44,849 nt of DNA. It comes from a bacterium. GTDB taxonomy: Bacteria > Patescibacteriota > Minisyncoccia > Phycocordibacterales > UBA9973. The DNA lies in contig JBAXTD010000003.1 in the NCBI GenBank assembly GCA_037130335.1, positions 1 to 44,849 of the forward strand, written 5' to 3'. The position numbers were made by a program, and so were the translations under genes. Positions 20,243 through 44,805 of this stretch are shown here, piece after piece (position 1 is the first letter of the stretch; every line of letters begins with the position of its first letter). The notes below the pieces were generated by a model, which was given only the letters and a program-made list of their open reading frames with translations, was not told the origin of the DNA and did not search any database.

Positions 20243-20259
20243 ACTCCCCGTGAAGTTTT

Positions 20260-20332
20260 GGGCCCTTAGCTCATCTGGTAGAGCGCCTCATTTGCAATGA
20301 GGAGGCAAGCGGTTCGAGTCCGCTAGGGTCCA
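20260..20332 (+). tRNA. tRNA-Ala (TGC), CCA not encoded
   Basis: Cloverleaf: acceptor GGGCCCT/AGGGTCC with G3:U70; D arm GCTC/GAGC; anticodon arm CCTCA-TTTGCAA-TGAGG; T arm AGCGG-TTCGAGT-CCGCT; discriminator A73. Confidence 0.98.
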
Positions 20333-21818
20333 CCCTACCGAAATTTGCATCCGATAATGCAGATTTCACCTTGAAGAACTTACTTATTTGTGGAGTTCCA
20401 AAAGAATTATTCGTAAAAGTGCAACCTAATGGGAATTGGAACACCTGCAGAGCAAGTTTTGTGGCAGGTTTTGATTTGAGCCATATTTTACTAGGCATTT
20501 TAAAATACGGTTCAAGATAATTGACACACTCAGAAATATCAATTTTTTCAGAGGAATGGTTATAAAGTAGCGTATGAGAATTCGTTAGTTCCACATCAAT
20601 AACATCAAGTTGCTGCTTTAATACAGTATCACTAATAATCCCGTCTATATTTTTCTTAATCAAAATGGTTTGTCGTGCATTAAGTTCCTTGATGTGTTTC
20701 TGTAAGTTTTCCGATTCTTTTTGTTCAATTTGATCTCGTGCAACTAGTTCCTCTTTAATAAAACGTCTTAATTTTTGGTAGTGTGCATTATCAAGTGCAT
20801 AGTAATCCATATACCGCATAAATGCATGTTCAAAATTATCTCGATTATAATTACTCCCGCCAGTTCTGCCAAAGCGGTAATATGGAAACTTCTTATACTT
20901 CCCTGTCGACCAACTACCTGTTAGTTTTTTATTGTTTTCATTCACTATAAACCGTCTCAAAGGAAAATCGGGATGATCTGTTATGTGCGGATTATTTAGC
21001 TTACCGTTGCTTTTTAAAACACGTTGCACGTGTACAAATAATTCATTAGAAACAATCGGCTCAAATAACCCTTTGTGCCTTTCACCAAATTTATTTATCC
21101 AACCTGCATATAATTCATTGGCAAATATTTCCCGAAAATATGAATTGACAAGAGGCTTACCATTTCGAGTCAACCCTTCCTTTGTCATTATGCGATACAC
21201 TTCTTCTACAGAACTGGTATTACTTGCCACTATTTCAAATGCGCGAAGAATAAGTGGAGCCATTGTTAAATTTTTACCAATAGTGGCTTTGCCACATACG
21301 CGTATATTGTCGTAGCCAATCGGAGCTTTCCAAACATACCGACCTTCACGAATTGCTTCCTTCATTCCACCGGAGCAACGCTCGGCTCGGATGTCGTTAT
21401 CAAACTGAGAAATGTTAGCCAATGTATTTTCCATGAACCGACCAACGGGAGTGTTTTCAAAGTGCTCTGATGTAGATTTAATTTCCACACCATACCGTTT
21501 TAACATAAGACGGAGTTGACTGTAATCGTCAGTATTGCGTGAAAGCCGATCTAATTTATAAATGATGACAACCTTTATGCTATTCTTTTTACTTGAACAA
21601 TATGCAAGTAGTTTTTGAAGTTCGGTTCGGTCAGCCGTCTTTGCACTTTCACCCTGCTCCCGATATGTTTCTATAACTTCAAAGTCATTGTTTAGTGCGT
21701 ATTCTTTACAAATACGTTCTTGAGTAGCAAGACTATTGCCTTCTTCAACTTGTTCCTTTGTTGATACTCGACAATAGATTACCGCTTTTCTTTTTGATAT
21801 CTGATTTAATGCGTTCAT
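20271..21818 (-). CDS. Large serine recombinase LSR1 (putative tRNA-Ala integrase); C-terminus currently supplied by the tRNA antisense strand
   Basis: YCRVST, ESAKTADR, YKLDRLSRN, APIGY, EPIVS, coiled coil; last 20 aa (VDPSGLEPLASSLQMRRSTR) are antisense tRNA; likely start MNAL at 21818. Confidence 0.93.
   Translation of the reverse strand: MNALNQISKRKAVIYCRVSTKEQVEEGNSLATQERICKEYALNNDFEVIETYREQGESAKTADRTELQKLLAYCSSKKNSIKVVIIYKLDRLSRNTDDYSQLRLMLKRYGVEIKSTSEHFENTPVGRFMENTLANISQFDNDIRAERCSGGMKEAIREGRYVWKAPIGYDNIRVCGKATIGKNLTMAPLILRAFEIVASNTSSVEEVYRIMTKEGLTRNGKPLVNSYFREIFANELYAGWINKFGERHKGLFEPIVSNELFVHVQRVLKSNGKLNNPHITDHPDFPLRRFIVNENNKKLTGSWSTGKYKKFPYYRFGRTGGSNYNRDNFEHAFMRYMDYYALDNAHYQKLRRFIKEELVARDQIEQKESENLQKHIKELNARQTILIKKNIDGIISDTVLKQQLDVIDVELTNSHTLLYNHSSEKIDISECVNYLEPYFKMPSKIWLKSKPATKLALQVFQFPLGCTFTNNSFGTPQISKFFKVKSALSDANFGRVDPSGLEPLASSLQMRRSTR
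20328..20333 (+). repeat. attL core (GTCCAC) at the tRNA-Ala 3' end
   Basis: gctaggGTCCAC here versus gccagaGTCCAC at 44789-44800. Confidence 0.75.
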
Positions 21819-21927
21819 TTTCTTTATGGTCAATAAAGGCCTGTACAAGAATTCGTGCTAAATAGCGCAATGCTATTTCGTCAGATGCAAATTCTACTGG
21901 TATTTTATTGTCCTTTACTTTTTGCAT
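21745..21927 (-). CDS. Small protein overlapping the LSR1 start (possible directionality/accessory factor)
   Basis: 60 aa with an amphipathic helix (EIALRYLARILVQAFID); co-oriented with and overlapping the integrase. Function is inferred from position only. Confidence 0.5.
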   Translation of the reverse strand: MQKVKDNKIPVEFASDEIALRYLARILVQAFIDHKENERIKSDIKKKSGNLLSSINKGTS

Positions 21928-22000: not shown

Positions 22001-22086
22001 TTACTAAAAATGGTAAAGGTTGTTTGAGCGGTTATCCCCTTTTATCACCATAAATGGTAATTCCATCTTCCTTACCATTCCGGTAA
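22001..22086. promoter_or_regulatory. Three copies of a TTACCAnnnATGGTAA-like palindrome between the divergent recombinases
   Basis: ttactaaaaatggtaa 22001-22016; tcaccataaatggtaa 22045-22060; ttaccattccggtaa 22072-22086. Confidence 0.65.
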
Positions 22087-22148
22087 AACGCACTACACTT
22101 AAATCAAACAAAAATCATTTTTTAACTTCACATTGAAAATTTCATAGC

Positions 22149-24068
22149 ATGGAACAGAAAAAACGTGTAGGAATTTGGGTACGAGTATCAACTGAATTTC
22201 AAGTTAAGGACGACAGCCCCGAACACCATGAGCAAAGAGCCAGGTATTACGCAGAGGCAAAAGGTTGGGAGGTTATAGAAGTATACCGCCTTGAAGCGAT
22301 CTCTGGAAAAACCGTCATGGAATTGCCTGAGACTAAGAAAATGCTTCGGGATATTCAAACCGGACGGATTACCGCCCTTGTATTCTCAAAGCTTGCGAGG
22401 TTAGCAAGAAACACAAAGGAACTGCTTGAATTTTCCGAACTGTTTAGAAAATCAAACGCTGACATGATTTCCTTGGCTGAGAACATTGATACAAGTTCAC
22501 CATCAGGCAGATTGTTTTTCACAATCATTGCTGCAATGGCAGAATGGGAACGAGCAGAAATTGCCGAGCGGGTTGCAGCATCGGTTCCCATACGGGCAAA
22601 AATGGGTAAACCTTTAGGAGGTGCAGCCCCTTATGGGTATCAATGGAAAGGCAAGGAATTGATTGTAAACAAGCAAGAAGCTCCGATACGGAAGTTGATG
22701 TATGAACTCTTTGCAGAACACAAAAAGAAAGGGTTGGTAGCACGGAAGCTAAACGAAATGGGACATCGGACACGGAACGGCTCTGAGTTCAGTGATACCA
22801 CCATTGGCAGATTGCTGCACGATAGCACGGCGAAAGGTGTCCGGCTTGCCAACTACACCAAAAGTTTAGGAGACGGCAAAAAGTGGGTGTTAAAACCCGA
22901 AAGTGAATGGGTTCAAATTACCTGCCCTGCCATAGTTTCTGCCGAACTATGGGACAAGTGTAATAAAATTCTCATTGAACAGGAAGAAAAGAACCACAGA
23001 CCCGCTAAATCTGTAACACAGCTTTTTTCGGGGATCCTATATTGTGGCTGCGATGGCAAAATGTATTACAACCCTCACGGAAATTCCTACCGATGCAAAA
23101 CATGCAAGAAAACCAAAATCGGAGTTGACGACATCGAAGAAATATATTTTTCACAAATGGAAATTTTCCTAATGTCTGATTCGCATTTCGATAAGTTTCT
23201 TTCAAAAGCGAAAAAGGAAATTTCGGAGAAAGAAAAATCACTTGAATCTTTTTTGAAAGACAAAAAACGAATTCAGGCAGATATGGATTTAAAAATGGAA
23301 TTGTATATGGCTGGTCAGATTCCCAAAGATCGATTCGGCAGTTACTACAATCCCCTTGACCTACAACTCCGGCAAATTGAAAATTCCATTCCCCAAATCG
23401 AAGCCGAAATTGACATGCTCAGGATAGAGGAACTAAACGGCGATGCGGTAAAGCATGAAGCAAAAACAATGTATGAAAGATGGAGTACCCTCGACAAATC
23501 CGCAAAACGCTCCTTTGTCGAAAGAATCACCAGCCGAATAACAATTGCTGGTGACGAGGTAGCGATCCGATTCCGCTACCATCCCTCCTATTTCCTAAAT
23601 TCGCAAAATACCCAACACAACTTCATACCTGCGTTGCCTTTTTTGCACGTCCAGTTATTTGCTCAAATTCCATCACAACCTATTGAAAATCTGAAACATA
23701 TCGGAGAGCATATTAAAAACCGCCGAATGCAGCTTAAATTATTCCAAACCGATATAGCAAAGATATTCAATGTTTGTGAGGATTCAATCACGGGATGGGA
23801 GAACGAAAGGAGCGCTCCACAGATTCAATATTATCCTAAACTGATTGAATTTTTGGGGTACAATCCCTTTCCAGTTGAAACGGCAACTTTGGGCGGGAGG
23901 ATTAAACAATTCAGGATTTTAAACGGGCTAAGTCAGGAGGATTTAGCTAAAAAAATGGGTGTGAACGAGAGTACAATTTTCTCATGGGAGAAAGGAGATC
24001 ATGCGCCATTTCCTAGTAAGAAAAAATTACTTGAAGAAGTATTAAATCAAAAAGAGCTTTCAAAATGA
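22149..24068 (+). CDS. Large serine recombinase LSR2 fused in frame to two XRE-family HTH domains
   Basis: WVRVST, FSKLARLARN, APYGY, zinc ribbon YCGC...RCKTC, coiled coil; then IGEHIKNRR...QTDIA...ITGWENE and LGGRIKQFR...LSQEDLA...IFSWEKG. Confidence 0.92.
   Translation: MEQKKRVGIWVRVSTEFQVKDDSPEHHEQRARYYAEAKGWEVIEVYRLEAISGKTVMELPETKKMLRDIQTGRITALVFSKLARLARNTKELLEFSELFRKSNADMISLAENIDTSSPSGRLFFTIIAAMAEWERAEIAERVAASVPIRAKMGKPLGGAAPYGYQWKGKELIVNKQEAPIRKLMYELFAEHKKKGLVARKLNEMGHRTRNGSEFSDTTIGRLLHDSTAKGVRLANYTKSLGDGKKWVLKPESEWVQITCPAIVSAELWDKCNKILIEQEEKNHRPAKSVTQLFSGILYCGCDGKMYYNPHGNSYRCKTCKKTKIGVDDIEEIYFSQMEIFLMSDSHFDKFLSKAKKEISEKEKSLESFLKDKKRIQADMDLKMELYMAGQIPKDRFGSYYNPLDLQLRQIENSIPQIEAEIDMLRIEELNGDAVKHEAKTMYERWSTLDKSAKRSFVERITSRITIAGDEVAIRFRYHPSYFLNSQNTQHNFIPALPFLHVQLFAQIPSQPIENLKHIGEHIKNRRMQLKLFQTDIAKIFNVCEDSITGWENERSAPQIQYYPKLIEFLGYNPFPVETATLGGRIKQFRILNGLSQEDLAKKMGVNESTIFSWEKGDHAPFPSKKKLLEEVLNQKELSK
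23613..23636. other. Putative unrecombined attP of LSR2, inside its own reading frame
   Basis: Imperfect inverted repeat caacaca-acttCAtacc-tgcgttg centred on CA at 23624-23625, exactly at the recombinase/HTH junction (HNF/IPALPF). Confidence 0.55.
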
Positions 24069-24111: not shown

Positions 24112-26331
24112 ATGAGAGAATACCATCTATTAGGCAGCACTAATAAGTATAATATTTTCGATGCAAAGCAGTGTCAACTAATATCTATCTTTAAGGTAGA
24201 TATTCTAGACCCATTGTTCGGACTAGAAATGACAGCAACACCTTATTTAAGAACTCAAGGAACAGGAAAAAATGCAAAACAAATCGTCATGAAAAATGTT
24301 TTGTATTCATACAATTTAGGCGATGCGATTAGGGGAAAACTTGTAAAAGACCCTTGGGTTGGTACAGAGGGAGATACTGATTTCAGTCAATTTAATTCTG
24401 ATTCAATTGAAACAGATGCTAGAAAACTACAGTTGGCAGCTTATTTTCATGAGCGAGCTAAAAATGCACTTAAAGAATATGCCCTTGAAAACAATCTTCA
24501 TGTTGTAAAACCTGTAATGTTAGTTGTCGCGAAAGATACCACTCACGCAAGGGAGTTAAGAACTCTGATTGATAGTGATAATTTTCGTGGCGGTGAATAT
24601 ATAGGAAAGGTCATTGAGGTACACACAAAATTGCGAGGAGATGAAGCGGATGAAAATATTGAAAAATTAATTTCACTTGAACAGCCTGAAAACATTGTTG
24701 AAATTGTAATTCACGTTAACATGCTCAAAGAAGGCTGGGATGTTACAAATGTATATACAATAGCACCTTTGCGTGAAGCGGCAGCAGCAATTTTAACAGA
24801 GCAAACAATAGGTCGTGGATTACGTCTACCTTATGGTGAAAGGACTGGTGTTCCATTAGTTGATAGGCTTGTGTTGGTTGCACATGAACAATTTGCAAAA
24901 GTTGTTGCGCTTGCCAAAGATTCACCTCTTATTCAAGGGCAGGTTGAAAAAATTTCATCAAGTGAAGCAAAGGAAGTAAAAGTCTTAACTGAGGTACAGC
25001 CTATAATTCTGCAAAGTGTTGCAAATGAAATAAGAAATAACCAAGTAGTAATGCAAGCTGTTGCAGAAAAAGCTACTGAAATTGTCTCAAAAAATCCATA
25101 CGCTGAGAATATGGAATCTAGCGTTTTAAAAAACTTTATTGATTCAAAGACAAATGAAATTGTAACTAGTTTAACTAAAGAAACTATAAAGAATTTATCA
25201 TTTTCTGATTTTCATGGACAACAACCAACTACTCAAACTGAATTGTCATTTGGTAGTGATACGCTTTTTGGTTCTTTTAGTAAAGAAGCAAAAGATGAAC
25301 TATCAAAGATTGCACAAAAATCAAGTGAAACTATGGAAAAGAGAAACATTTCTATTCCACGGTTAATACTCACCCCTAGTTTCGGAGAACTTTCTCTTAA
25401 TCCATTTGATTTAGATACAAGTATCATTCAATCATATACAAATGAAAAAGCGATCCTTGAGGAGCAATTACAAAATGATCGAGAAAAGGATTTGTTTGGT
25501 GATGACATTCCTGGGCGCAGACGAACTGAAGTAACAAGAATAGGTAGTTTCGGTTCACATAATAAACAAACTCCACAAAACACAATTATTGCTGCTCTCT
25601 TAGATTTTCCGCTTTTAGATTATGATGATCTGGAACAAAAACCCTTGCTTCTTAAATTAGCGGATCAAGCGGTATCTCACTATCGTAAAAAAGCAATTGA
25701 TGAAGATAATTTAGCTTTAATTGTCGAAAGTAACGCGAGGAGTATCGCCGAAGATATTCACAAACAAATATTAACTCATAAGGAATTAAAATTTGAAGGT
25801 TATTTAGAATCTGACGTTGGAGAACCAAAACCTTATTTAGAGCAATATAATATTTCATTATCTCTCGGAGAAAAATCTGTTCGACTAGAATCACAACTAA
25901 ATACGTTTAGTGCTAAATTTTTGTATGGGCAATTTCACAAAGCCTGTCATGGAATGTATCGCTTTGACTCATCCGATGAAGTCCGCTTGGCATACTTACT
26001 TGAACGTGATGAAACTGTAATAAATTGGCTTCGTCCTGCACCAAATCAATTTGAGGGTTTATATTGGCGTGACACAGAAGGAGAAGCACATCATAGGTAT
26101 GAACCAGATTTTGTTGTTGAGTTAGATGATGAAATTGTAATGGTTGAGGTAAAACCTGAAGAGGAAATTAGAACCTCAAGTGTACAAGCAAAAAAACAAA
26201 CAGCTCTTAAATACTGTGAAATAGTTAATAGAAATTTAGGTAAGTTTGGGATTGTAAAAAAATGGAAATATATTATTGTTCCTACAGAAAGAATTACAGT
26301 TACCTCTACTATTTTAAATTTATTAAAATAA
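24112..26331 (+). pseudogene. Type III restriction Res-like SF2 helicase-nuclease, N-terminally truncated
   Basis: Retains motif III (MTATP), VNMLKEGWDV, EQTIGRGLRL and PD-(D/E)xK (YEPDFVVE...VEVK); lacks Walker A and the DExH box; no mod gene adjacent. Confidence 0.75.
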
Positions 26332-27129: not shown

Positions 27130-29691
27130 ATGGCTGTGAGCACTGCAACAAAACGAAATATTGTTGACTTCCTATGGGAATGGGGGGAATCAAATGGAGA
27201 ATGGGGTAAACTATTGATCTCAAAAATAATCGGCACAGAAACAAATCTGACGATTGAAGACAAAAAGGAGGTCTTTGATTATTTCTTGCAGTCAATTAAA
27301 CTTAAATCCGGATTGCCTGACTTGGCAATTAAAAAACCTGTCTATTCCCCTTCCACCAAAAAGATCGATATCATTTCACTTTCTGAAGTAAAAGGTGTAA
27401 ATAAATTGGCACTGGATCAGACCATCACATTCGCTGATAACATAACTGTGATCTACGGCGAAAATGGCTCTGGTAAAACTGGATACGGTCGGATCTTGAA
27501 GGCCTTAGGCTATAGCTATGAACTTTACAACAATATTTTGTGCGATATTACTAAACCTCAAGAACCGCAAACGGCTACAATTAAATATAGAGTTGATGGT
27601 GTTGATGGAGAATTTAACTGGGATGGCAAGGCAAAAAATAGTTCGTTAGAAAATATTTCAATCTTCAATAACAATTGCGTTCAAATATCTCTTGCTGATC
27701 GAGGGTTACTTGTCTCACCAATCGGATTTCATTTATTTAATCTTGTCTCTGATGAATTAGGATATTTAGCAAGACTGTGGCAAGAAACTATTGATAAATA
27801 CCCAACGCTGCTCCTTTGGGCAACCAACCTTCACCCTGGTACACTACAAGAAAATTTCATCTCTAATTTAAAGGGGAATTCAAGCCTGCCTAGACTGACA
27901 GAAATTTCAACTTTTGACGATGGTCATAAAACGAGCTTAGCCGATTGCGAGTTAGAGTTAAAGAACCTGAACAAGGCTTTACTTGAAAAAGAGTTGGCAA
28001 ATTTCAGAACCCAACTTGGTGAAATAGATGTAATCCTTGGCAAAGTCCTGAAAGCACAGAAAGCATTGAATGAAAATACTTGGGTAAACTTAGTCACACT
28101 CAATAAACAGTTACATGACTTAGAAGCCAAAACAAAAGTTGGGTTAAAGGAGATTGCTGAAACCAATAACATTGACTTTTATTTATCCAAAGAGTTCCAA
28201 GCCTTTATAAAAGCAGCAGATGAATACATTAAAATATTAAACAAGGACGATTACCCGAAAGGAGAATCTGAAACTTGTGTGTATTGCAAACAAGAATTGA
28301 AAACTGAGAATTCCATAGCGCTTCTAAGGAGCTACCGGAAGTTGTTAAATGACAACACGCAAGAGCTAATTAAAAAAGCTAAAGATTCAAAGACATCCAT
28401 TATTCAACTCATAGCTGCTATCGAAGTCCCATTAATTTTTCACCAAGATACATTTGGACGTGATTCGGACGGAAAAATTGTCCAACCCGAGGGCATTAGT
28501 AAATATAATAAACTTCTTGCCAGTTGGAAAGCGATTGTTGACAAGGGAGAGTTTGATGAAATAAAATTCGATCTTGATTATACTGAATACATTACCTTCT
28601 TAGAGTCAAGAAAAACAAAAACCGAGGAGGCGATCAAGCTAAAAATCCATACAATTGATAATATTTCTATCAAAGAAAAAGAGCTCATTGCGAAAATTAA
28701 TGAGTTAAAAGATAGAGAATTTCTTTCAACAAGAACCGAGGATGTAAAAAAGGCTATAGCAAACAAAGTAATAGTTTCAACTCTTTTGAATCATAAATCT
28801 AGTTTCTCGACAAACACCATAAGCAGGAAAACTACTGAAGCTAGAGAGGAGTTGGTACAAACAGAATTTAATAAGTATTTTACTGAAGAACTAAAAGCTC
28901 TTAGGAAGTCAAATATTAAAATTGAATTGACCTTCGGAACTTCGAAAGGAAATTCACGACTTCAACAGCGAATAAACACATCATATATTCTCTCCGACAT
29001 TTTGAGCGAAGGAGAACAAAAAGCAATCGCTCTGGCAGAATTTCTTACCGAATTACAGCTTGATAAATCAAAATCCCCCGTTATTTTTGACGACCCCGTA
29101 AATAGTTTAGACCATCATATCATAGAAGACGTTTCAAGAAGGTTACTCACATTATCGAGGTCAAGGCAGGTAATAATTTTCACTCACAGCATTCTACTTT
29201 TTAATAGTATAATGCACAATTGCAAACTAGCGACTTACAAAGACCTACAGAAAATTCTCTATGATATACGATCGGAATACGGACTGACTGGGGTAATATC
29301 TATTACTGATGCCGATATAGATCAAGTCAAAAAACCAGTAGTTAAAATCCGAACGTTATTGAATAATTTGCCGAAAGGACGAAGAGAGAATGATGTTGCA
29401 GCAGAAGGTTTCGGTGAGCTACGTGCAGCCATTGAATTATTGGTAGAGCATCACATTTTCAGAGGTACAGTAAAACGCTATCAGCCTAATATTGCGCTGA
29501 CAAACTTTATTAAAGTCGATGGTTTATTGGTAAATAAAAACAAAGATAAACTCAATGAGATTTACGAAAGATGTTGCAGATATACAAATGCACATAGTAA
29601 TCCTGAAGAAGTAATTACTCAACCGACTGTTGCAGAACTAAAACTTGATTTTGATGAATTTGAGACTATCCATAAACAGTTTCCAATATAA
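27130..29691 (+). CDS. RloC-like Rad50/ABC ATPase with zinc hook and C-terminal HEPN-like domain (putative anti-phage)
   Basis: Walker A GENGSGKT, coiled coil with CVYC, signature LSEGE, Walker B/D-loop IFDDPVNSLD, H-switch IFTH, C-terminal RYTNAH (Rx4H). Confidence 0.75.
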   Translation: MAVSTATKRNIVDFLWEWGESNGEWGKLLISKIIGTETNLTIEDKKEVFDYFLQSIKLKSGLPDLAIKKPVYSPSTKKIDIISLSEVKGVNKLALDQTITFADNITVIYGENGSGKTGYGRILKALGYSYELYNNILCDITKPQEPQTATIKYRVDGVDGEFNWDGKAKNSSLENISIFNNNCVQISLADRGLLVSPIGFHLFNLVSDELGYLARLWQETIDKYPTLLLWATNLHPGTLQENFISNLKGNSSLPRLTEISTFDDGHKTSLADCELELKNLNKALLEKELANFRTQLGEIDVILGKVLKAQKALNENTWVNLVTLNKQLHDLEAKTKVGLKEIAETNNIDFYLSKEFQAFIKAADEYIKILNKDDYPKGESETCVYCKQELKTENSIALLRSYRKLLNDNTQELIKKAKDSKTSIIQLIAAIEVPLIFHQDTFGRDSDGKIVQPEGISKYNKLLASWKAIVDKGEFDEIKFDLDYTEYITFLESRKTKTEEAIKLKIHTIDNISIKEKELIAKINELKDREFLSTRTEDVKKAIANKVIVSTLLNHKSSFSTNTISRKTTEAREELVQTEFNKYFTEELKALRKSNIKIELTFGTSKGNSRLQQRINTSYILSDILSEGEQKAIALAEFLTELQLDKSKSPVIFDDPVNSLDHHIIEDVSRRLLTLSRSRQVIIFTHSILLFNSIMHNCKLATYKDLQKILYDIRSEYGLTGVISITDADIDQVKKPVVKIRTLLNNLPKGRRENDVAAEGFGELRAAIELLVEHHIFRGTVKRYQPNIALTNFIKVDGLLVNKNKDKLNEIYERCCRYTNAHSNPEEVITQPTVAELKLDFDEFETIHKQFPI

Positions 29692-44662: not shown

Positions 44663-44800
44663 TTACGCACTAGAATCTTTAAGGATTTTATATACCACGG
44701 AAACATCTTTCCTAAATTCAGCCCAAAAAACCATATCAAATTCTTTGCCTTTTGGTTTTGGTATATGTACGGTGTTTTGTTTTTTTAAGCCAGAGTCCAC
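44663..44800 (-). other. Orphan 3' end of LSR1, rejoined in frame on excision
   Basis: From the att core GTGGAC: VDSGLKKQNTVHIPKPKGKEFDMVFWAEFRKDVSVVYKILKDSSA*, open in the same frame as the VD codons of LSR1. Confidence 0.7.
44795..44800 (+). repeat. attR core (GTCCAC)
   Basis: Matches the tRNA 3' end and is directly followed by a terminator. Confidence 0.72.
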
Positions 44801-44805
44801 GCGCT

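Follow-up and report, generated by a model that had tools for sequence, protein, structure and literature searches.

The window analysed here is a stretch of 44,849 nucleotides (positions 1 to 44,849 of contig JBAXTD010000003.1, assembly GCA_037130335.1) from a bacterium of the Patescibacteriota. In its list of open reading frames (ORFs), a single uninterrupted frame of 639 codons occupies 22149-24068 on the forward strand. The frame encodes a large serine recombinase, termed LSR2, which continues into a tandem of helix-turn-helix (HTH) domains. LSR2 is very probably a serine integrase targeting comM/yifB, with the attachment site of the element (attP) located in its own reading frame, where recombination splits the recombinase from the tandem HTH. 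This reading builds on the anatomy of LSR2, the junctions formed by its homologues and the core shared among these junctions, all of which were observed directly. The fused arrangement is real, precisely delimited and widespread across phyla.

The recombinase part covers 22149-23624 (residues 1-492) and is retained in integrated homologues. It consists of a Resolvase catalytic domain (PF00239, residues 9-154, E 2.6e-31), a Recombinase domain (PF07508, residues 176-275, E 1.1e-16), a Zn-ribbon and a long helical region. The Pfam match to the Zn-ribbon PF13408 at residues 292-323 is weak (20.1 bits, under the cut-off of 25.3). In an alignment of 25 sequences, the catalytic stretch R12, V13, S14 (the nucleophilic serine) and T15 is invariant, as are the cysteines C299, C301, C316 and C319. 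NCBIfam profiles for CcrB and XisF match LSR2 in part. The protein hence carries the marks of a serine integrase, namely the resolvase-type N-terminal catalytic domain with its nucleophilic serine, the Recombinase domain with a zinc-ribbon and, as read from the DNA, a quasi-palindromic att site with a central 2-bp core common to attP and the chromosomal target attB.

The recombinase part ends in ...NSQNTQHNF at residue 492 and the frame runs on as IPALPF..., encoding the half that is severed by integration (23625-24065, forward strand). This half starts with a linker encoded by the P' arm of attP, followed by two Cro/CI-type domains, HTH 1 (about 23694-23852) and HTH 2 (about 23889-24059), both on the forward strand. 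Two in-frame HTHs after IPALPF were already part of the preliminary description of the sequence, and the ORF together with Pfam and NCBIfam matches confirms them. A Pfam scan of the full-length protein finds HTH_3 at residues 585-633, while the C-terminal 147 aa scanned separately give two HTH_3 stretches. NCBIfam adds a DicA-like HTH at residues 516-568 and more HTH matches at 581-637. Profile searches against the PDB retrieve the P22 c2 and 434 repressors for the first module, and the ICEBs1 regulator, HipB and SinR for the second. An AlphaFold2 model of the HTH half (mean pLDDT 88.8) predicts about 25 disordered residues, corresponding to the linker, and then two four-helix modules. In Foldseek comparisons, a single predicted module aligns with the P22 c2 repressor over about 60 residues with a target-normalised TM-score of 0.78-0.80 and an rmsd of 1.3-1.7 Å. 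No solved structure retrieved with the HTH half covers the whole tandem, the best query-normalised TM-score being 0.39. Pfam, PDB profiles and Foldseek all assign the C-terminal modules to the Cro/CI (XRE) HTH fold.

The boundary between the two halves coincides with a 24-bp imperfect palindrome at 23613-23636, with arms at 23613-23623 and 23626-23636 around a central CA at 23624-23625. The palindrome lies exactly where the preliminary description had placed it and marks the centre of an LSR2 attP that probably spans about 40-50 bp. A shared CAT core (23624-23626) had been proposed for this centre. The position of the core was correct, but CAT does not hold as a general core, since it is common only where the preceding host Pro codon is CCA. 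What the att junctions have in common is the dinucleotide CA, which is taken as the shared core. This crossover dinucleotide of attP and attB corresponds to the TG of the first Cys codon in the comM motif MNP-C-PCG, and recurs in 45 of 46 attR junctions, in all ten attL junctions and in the comM target of the window genome itself. In the 44.8-kb window, CAACRC-N10-14-GYGTTG matches a single place, the LSR2 junction, compared to 0.05 occurrences expected, and one match appeared in 5 of 100 shuffles of the window. Across 196 loci, the pattern was found in 24, of which 21 carry it at the LSR2 junction (one of these is the re-fetched window and another a duplicate record). Among the 20 distinct junctions with the strict palindrome, window included, 17 continue in frame into an HTH, one has no stop before its contig ends and two terminate early.

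Homologues of LSR2 were surveyed at 160 loci (80 from genome contigs and 80 from metagenome contigs, with L127 duplicating L006 and L121 duplicating L004), and the window was counted additionally. In protein searches, homologues fall into two length classes: those lacking an HTH measure about 494-543 aa, those with one about 627-676 aa. HTH_3 is present in 52 of the best 120 protein clusters by hand count, and the closest relatives of LSR2, at 88-92% identity, belong to the short class. All aligned homologues keep ...Q(H/R)N(F/L) and diverge directly after it, which corresponds to 23624-23625 of the window and to the breakpoint that the preliminary description had anticipated. Fused forms continue as IPALPF..., and short forms terminate after RGS, RDS, MDS or MDSWMQ or read KGSSK.... 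On genome contigs, 46 recombinases abut the antisense 5' part of comM, three the sense 3' part, 20 are fused (19 loci and the window) and 12 have other contexts. On metagenome contigs, the corresponding counts are 37, five, four and 23, with 11 contigs ending too soon. Over the 160 loci, this amounts to 83 recombinases against an antisense comM/yifB 5' fragment, eight against a comM 3' fragment and 23 fused to an HTH. At the antisense loci, the recombinase stops a few codons into the comM/yifB fragment. Short homologues were expected to run into antisense comM, and both observations that would have spoken against an attachment site at this position are absent, as some homologues lack the fusion and the short forms end at a host gene.

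The junctions are uniform at the level of single bases. At attR, the recombinase arm is followed by CA and NGG(A/G)TTCAT (Met-Asn-Pro in antisense) in 45 of 46 junctions, and the 46th is a variant. All ten attL junctions adjoining comM read CA followed by the P' arm. Flavipsychrobacter stenotrophus, for which a cultured isolate exists (RB1R16, with a full-length LSR1 beside the split LSR2), illustrates both sides. Its 502-aa LSR2 ends in ...YNF-MDSWMQ and overlaps, on the opposite strand, a 352-aa ComM fragment ending in ...FMLIASMNP, which bears out the tail HNF-MDSY that had been given for homologues as an antisense reading of ComM. About 18.6 kb upstream, at attL, an ORF reading M-D-IPALGTF followed by the tandem HTH abuts an antisense ComM fragment starting with CPCGYFNHPEK. 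Rejoining the host sides restores comM as ...ATG AAT CCA TGT CCA TGT GGG.... Among 11 integrated genomes searched, the severed HTH half immediately follows the antisense comM 3' fragment in ten, each time joined at CA, the arrangement predicted in the preliminary description, and no match to the HTH half was found in the remaining one (G006). The orphan half has stayed an open frame of 129-193 aa, with 12 of 13 copies lacking a stop. Homologues are thus found integrated in the gene for the YifB-family Mg-chelatase-like ATPase, and the LSR2 of the window itself is not integrated there.

Several junctions depart from this layout. The HTH halves of L083 (in G002), L093 (the same as L065 398-838, in G008) and L094 (in G011) and the recombinase end of L027 lie beside sequences other than comM, and these may be secondary or aberrant integration sites. 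The eight recombinases against the sense comM 3' fragment (L011, L023, L057, L120, L135, L137, L142 and L152) have junctions whose sequence is that of a normal attL in reverse complement, and the recombinase gene of such elements seems to be placed on the opposite side of attP. One of them (L120) has a recombinase 81% identical to the LSR2 of the window. A full-length comM-like gene stands directly upstream of the recombinase within one comM-integrated element (L067, 8412-9917) and may replace the disrupted comM. L037 (11465-12490) encodes an 830-aa fused form in which another, unassigned domain takes the place of the second HTH after the first.

Fusion and splitting represent two states and not two lineages, because both forms are interspersed on the recombinase tree. 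The FastTree phylogeny comprised 111 recombinase parts, leaving out loci with other contexts or at contig ends, the duplicate L127, and L023, L135 and L158 owing to stops or short hits. The 23 fused tips require 17 changes, at least 12 of which are forced by well-supported branches. Shuffled tips needed a mean of 21.1 changes and only 4 of 500 shuffles were as low as 17. The window protein is sister, with a support of 99, to the comM-split metagenome copies L117 and L118 at 91-92% identity. As far as comparison among genomes reaches, the fused and split forms show themselves to be interconvertible. Pairs of copies also occur side by side. Two LSR2 homologues converge tail to tail in L018 (10001-12988), with a palindrome-bearing junction between them, and on a 189-kb Mucilaginibacter contig (L008 and L030) about 40 kb separates a fused copy from a comM-split one of like orientation. 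Such pairs may represent tandem or nested elements.

A second large serine recombinase of the window, LSR1 (20271-21848, reverse strand), is in the integrated, split form. Its last 21 codons are antisense to a tRNA-Ala(tgc) gene at 20259-20335 on the forward strand, which serves as its attB, with the left junction core GTCCAC at 20328-20333. The severed LSR1 C-terminal extension, 46 codons reading RVDSGLKK...KDSSA plus a stop, is found at 44663-44803 on the reverse strand, with the right junction core GTGGAC at 44795-44800 (reverse strand). GTGGAC is common to both junctions. Bacteroidota homologues of LSR1 (L003, L054, L008 and L006; 41-53% identity) carry a C-terminal extension of about 45 residues, which in L054 begins IVDSGLKK and which the severed extension of the window matches (tblastn E 1.6e-4). 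Because of the LSR1 extension and GTGGAC at the right end, the element is delimited as about 24.5 kb, at about 20334-44797, inserted by LSR1 at the 3' end of tRNA-Ala. As read from the two junctions, the LSR1 ORF also crosses its own attP, and integration into tRNA-Ala swapped the 46-residue extension for 21 antisense-tRNA codons. The severed extension lies about 50 bp before the contig end. Synteny with six genomes of the same genus gave no right boundary for the element, as the region past the glutamate dehydrogenase gene is not conserved among them.

The attP of LSR2 is stably intact in the window because the element sits in tRNA-Ala through LSR1. The two recombinases show reciprocal states, with LSR1 split and LSR2 fused in the window, and LSR2 split and LSR1 full length in L003 and L054. 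In the 18.8-kb contig L006, both are full length with both attPs intact. The ends of this contig show no terminal overlap as evidence of circularity, and the contig ends within a gene. L037, a 681-kb chromosome, has the same layout as the window with a tRNA-Ala(ggc), and L014 combines a fused LSR2 with another recombinase ending in antisense tRNA-His. In the window genome (754 kb, 98.6% complete), the comM gene, of the YifB family, is intact on contig C30 (TIGR00368, 547 bits against a cut-off of 362 in NCBIfam), with the unoccupied target ...CA-TGGATTCAT. The reciprocal integrase states account for the coexistence of an intact attP and an intact chromosomal target in one genome.

We suggest the following sequence of events. 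With attP, located in the linker between the recombinase and the tandem Cro/CI-type HTH, intact, the LSR2 promoter would drive one polypeptide of 639 aa. This would apply to the free circle or to an element parked in tRNA-Ala by LSR1, as in the window. Recombination with comM would take place in the first Cys codon of MNP-C-PCG, at its CA/TG dinucleotide. The attR product would be a recombinase of about 495-502 aa ending 3-10 codons into antisense comM. The attL product, 10-35 kb away, would be an orphan ORF with the tandem HTH reading inward from the comM 3' fragment. Integration would thus strip the HTH half of its N-terminal partner, promoter and start codon, and excision would rebuild the fusion.

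Tentatively, and at somewhat less than even odds, the HTH half could act as a DNA-binding regulator, for instance as an autorepressor of the divergent promoter region between LSR1 and LSR2, which would be synthesized and tethered only in the attP state, and a change in recombination state would then change regulation. Candidate sites for such a regulator lie upstream of LSR2. The 13-mer TTCACATTGAAAA at 22127-22139 (forward strand), which includes the small palindrome TTCA-CAT-TGAA, lies 10 nt upstream of the LSR2 start codon. It stands at the corresponding position in 13 other loci, split and fused alike, with LSR2 70-92% identical, and could function as a promoter, leader or operator. AATGGTAA is present three times at 22009-22079 in the divergent intergenic region, twice in direct and once in inverted orientation. 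The motif occurs eight times in the window compared to 2.9 expected, a count reached in 1 of 100 shuffles, which makes for a weak candidate operator cluster. Allowing one mismatch, TTCACATTGAA is not enriched in the window (5 occurrences compared to 3.1 expected).

A number of observations weigh against the proposed explanation. After integration, the HTH half ends up behind the antisense comM fragment, and the host supplies an ATG for it in only two of the ten attL junctions (L081 and L085). At the others there is either a Met inside the frame, no Met close by or a long antisense frame that is open. HTH production after integration could thus go either way. Fused forms are common and occur in large chromosomal contigs, such as the 594-kb L022, and intact attPs are therefore often long-lived. 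A second, tRNA-integrated recombinase accounts for the intact attP only in the window, L037 and L014. The statistics for AATGGTAA and TTCACATTGAA are too weak to claim either as a binding site. Furthermore, the window LSR2 nests among Chitinophagaceae elements despite the 754-kb genome resembling those of the candidate phyla radiation (CPR), and a chimeric join at the tRNA is possible.

A broader mechanism would link both recombinases, although we consider it unlikely. The reactions of the two serine integrases would write and erase their own C-terminal modules (the tandem HTH of LSR2 at comM and the 46-residue helix of LSR1 at tRNA-Ala), which might constitute a self-resetting switch. The state of the DNA would then set which integrase isoform and regulator exist, and control directionality or expression. 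The switch would silence the unused attP while its chromosomal target is present. Two landing sites would also let near-identical elements inhabit both Chitinophagaceae, through comM, and tiny CPR-like genomes, through tRNA-Ala. If true, elements would have moved across phyla recently, perhaps from an episymbiont to its host or the reverse.

Alternatively, the C-terminal module might act on the recombinase protein itself. Tethered, it would set or lock directionality or activity, and once freed or lost it would leave a different enzyme. The severable helical extension of 46 residues in LSR1 would behave alike. Two recombinases of one element, at only about 22-26% identity, both lose a C-terminal piece on integration. 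According to PMC12286644, integrases engineered to carry a directionality factor at the C-terminus are functional, large C-terminal fusions can inhibit an integrase, and natural extensions there might block the factor-binding site. However, the module is an ordinary Cro/CI DNA-binding fold and present data do not support its contact with the recombinase. A complex prediction for LSR2 residues 160-492 and the HTH half returned a score of 0.00, which counts neither for nor against binding. Directionality factors bind the integrase where DBD2 meets the coiled coil and enable attL x attR recombination, and one tethered in the attP state would favour the wrong reaction. All in all, an effect on the protein appears improbable. 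The HTH half was also considered as a classic directionality factor fused in cis and rejected, as it would promote excision in the very state that requires integration.

The fusion could also be a mere by-product, with attP located between two neighbouring genes, a frame that happens to be open and no role beyond that of the two parts. Two attP-intact loci indeed stop 13 (L018) and 8 (L055) codons past the core, and some fused forms carry a single HTH or another domain (L017, L026, L063 and L037). Yet the frame is kept across a variable linker in 17 of the 20 palindrome-bearing junctions at 45-85% identity. Such junctions come from Bacteroidota, Patescibacteria, Pseudomonadota, Planctomycetota and Bacillota, and fused forms have no conserved separate start codon for the HTH. 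A chance arrangement has only a slim likelihood in our view.

A comM-targeting integrase with attP in its own frame is also a far better account than an assembly artefact, in which the fused ORF or the contig would be a chimera. In the probable source run, contigs have a depth of 49 in the flank and of 66-104 in the element, further variants of the tRNA-Ala branch within the tRNA, and the nearest relatives of LSR2 and LSR1 lie in Chitinophagaceae comM. Nevertheless, a 7367-nt contig of this run spans attP without a loose end, a further 23 fused loci are found in unrelated assemblies, GC content is uniform over the window, and the layout recurs in further small genomes, L037 and L014. The reading of LSR2 would in any case be unaffected by a chimera at the tRNA, and an artefact is very improbable. 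Contigs of the probable source run contain no alternative joint at 23624, but such contigs drop rare comM-integrated or excised variants. Finally, fused and short forms as fixed architectures of separate lineages, with a palindrome that is not an attachment site, can be set aside almost entirely, given that the two states are interspersed with 17 changes, that the break is precise to a single base and flanked on either side by host comM, and that the element holds the missing half at its opposite end, even if all Patescibacteria-type genomes among the loci examined are fused and none is split by comM.

Serine integrases are valued in genome engineering as simple and one-directional enzymes. 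To our knowledge, their natural regulation is poorly documented. Attachment sites inside integrase genes have precedents. In phage Mx8, attP lies inside the integrase gene intP/intX and integration changes the C-terminal end of that enzyme, and in the Sulfolobus virus SSV1, attP inside int leads to the partitioning of the gene. Unlike LSR2, both enzymes are tyrosine recombinases without a fused regulator. TnpX of Tn4451/Tn4453 is a large serine recombinase whose expression varies with the recombination state, the joint of the circular form creating its promoter. The effect there is on a promoter, unlike the effect of LSR2 recombination on domain composition.

Integration of large serine recombinases into comM, which the preliminary description had taken as established for other elements, is indeed published. 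In the available text of Durrant et al. 2022 (PMC10083194), 12.4% of predicted site-specific large serine recombinases target a Mg-chelatase-like gene, and the comM/yifB enzymes described there share both enzyme class and target gene with LSR2. The main text of PMC10083194 does not use the terms 'HTH', 'helix-turn-helix' or 'C-terminal'. An attP within the recombinase ORF, an HTH fusion and a second integrase go unmentioned in the passages available, though the supplementary tables may list family members together with their att sites. A literature search, in a collection with few subscription journals, retrieved no description of a serine-integrase ORF spanning attP into an HTH, with the caveat that the supplements of PMC10083194 may list such enzymes.

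The closest functional parallel is integration-dependent immunity in mycobacteriophages (BPs, Brujita and prophages of M. abscessus). According to PMC3694055 and PMC8092301, an HTH regulator there has attP within its coding sequence, so that the free form encodes one protein and the integrated form another, and integration acts as a genetic switch. LSR2 shares an attP in the coding sequence of an HTH regulator, located upstream of the HTHs. These systems, however, use tyrosine integrases and have attP in a separate repressor gene, while LSR2 combines a serine integrase and a putative regulator in one ORF, without a tyrosine integrase adjoining a repressor gene. Mycobacteriophage integration trims 20-35 C-terminal residues, which form a degradation tag, and so activates the repressor, whereas the HTH module of LSR2 keeps its C-terminus and loses its N-terminal partner instead. 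Membership of LSR2-HTH in this group was therefore rejected, the integrase being a serine recombinase within the same ORF. The engineered integrase-directionality-factor fusions in the available text of PMC12286644 have a layout similar to LSR2-HTH, with a second protein attached to the C-terminus through a flexible linker and altered behaviour. Those fusions are man-made and permanent, in contrast to the natural LSR2 fusion, which would be made and broken by its own reaction and has a Cro/CI partner.

The comparison across genomes suggests that LSR2 changes its own domain composition and uncouples a putative DNA-binding regulator through its own recombination event. It would provide a natural and testable case of state-dependent integrase isoforms, which parallels the engineered fusions, and would extend integration-dependent switches from tyrosine to serine integrases. 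A catalogue compiled from integrated copies lists a shortened enzyme whose tail is encoded by the host, and not the form that performs integration.

The remaining cargo of the element comprises, besides LSR1 and LSR2-HTH, a type III restriction enzyme ORF, a PDC-S06 candidate defence ATPase, ArdC, an XRE regulator and coupling-protein-like ATPases. The type III restriction enzyme ORF (24112-26331) follows the fusion ORF directly and lacks the first approximately 150 profile positions. Next comes the PDC-S06 candidate at full length (27130-29691, PADLOC E = 0), with ArdC and the coupling-protein-like ATPases further on. Cargo is shared with a Bacteroidota contig (L006), and the window genome measures 754 kb, with relatives of 0.5-1 Mb. 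The Bacteroidota-like element in this tiny genome means either that it crossed between phyla recently or that the contig is chimeric at the tRNA. The nearest copies of LSR2 (91-92% identity) and LSR1 (85%, partial), in L117 and L118, sit in comM genes that are 84-86% identical to the comM of Flavipsychrobacter.

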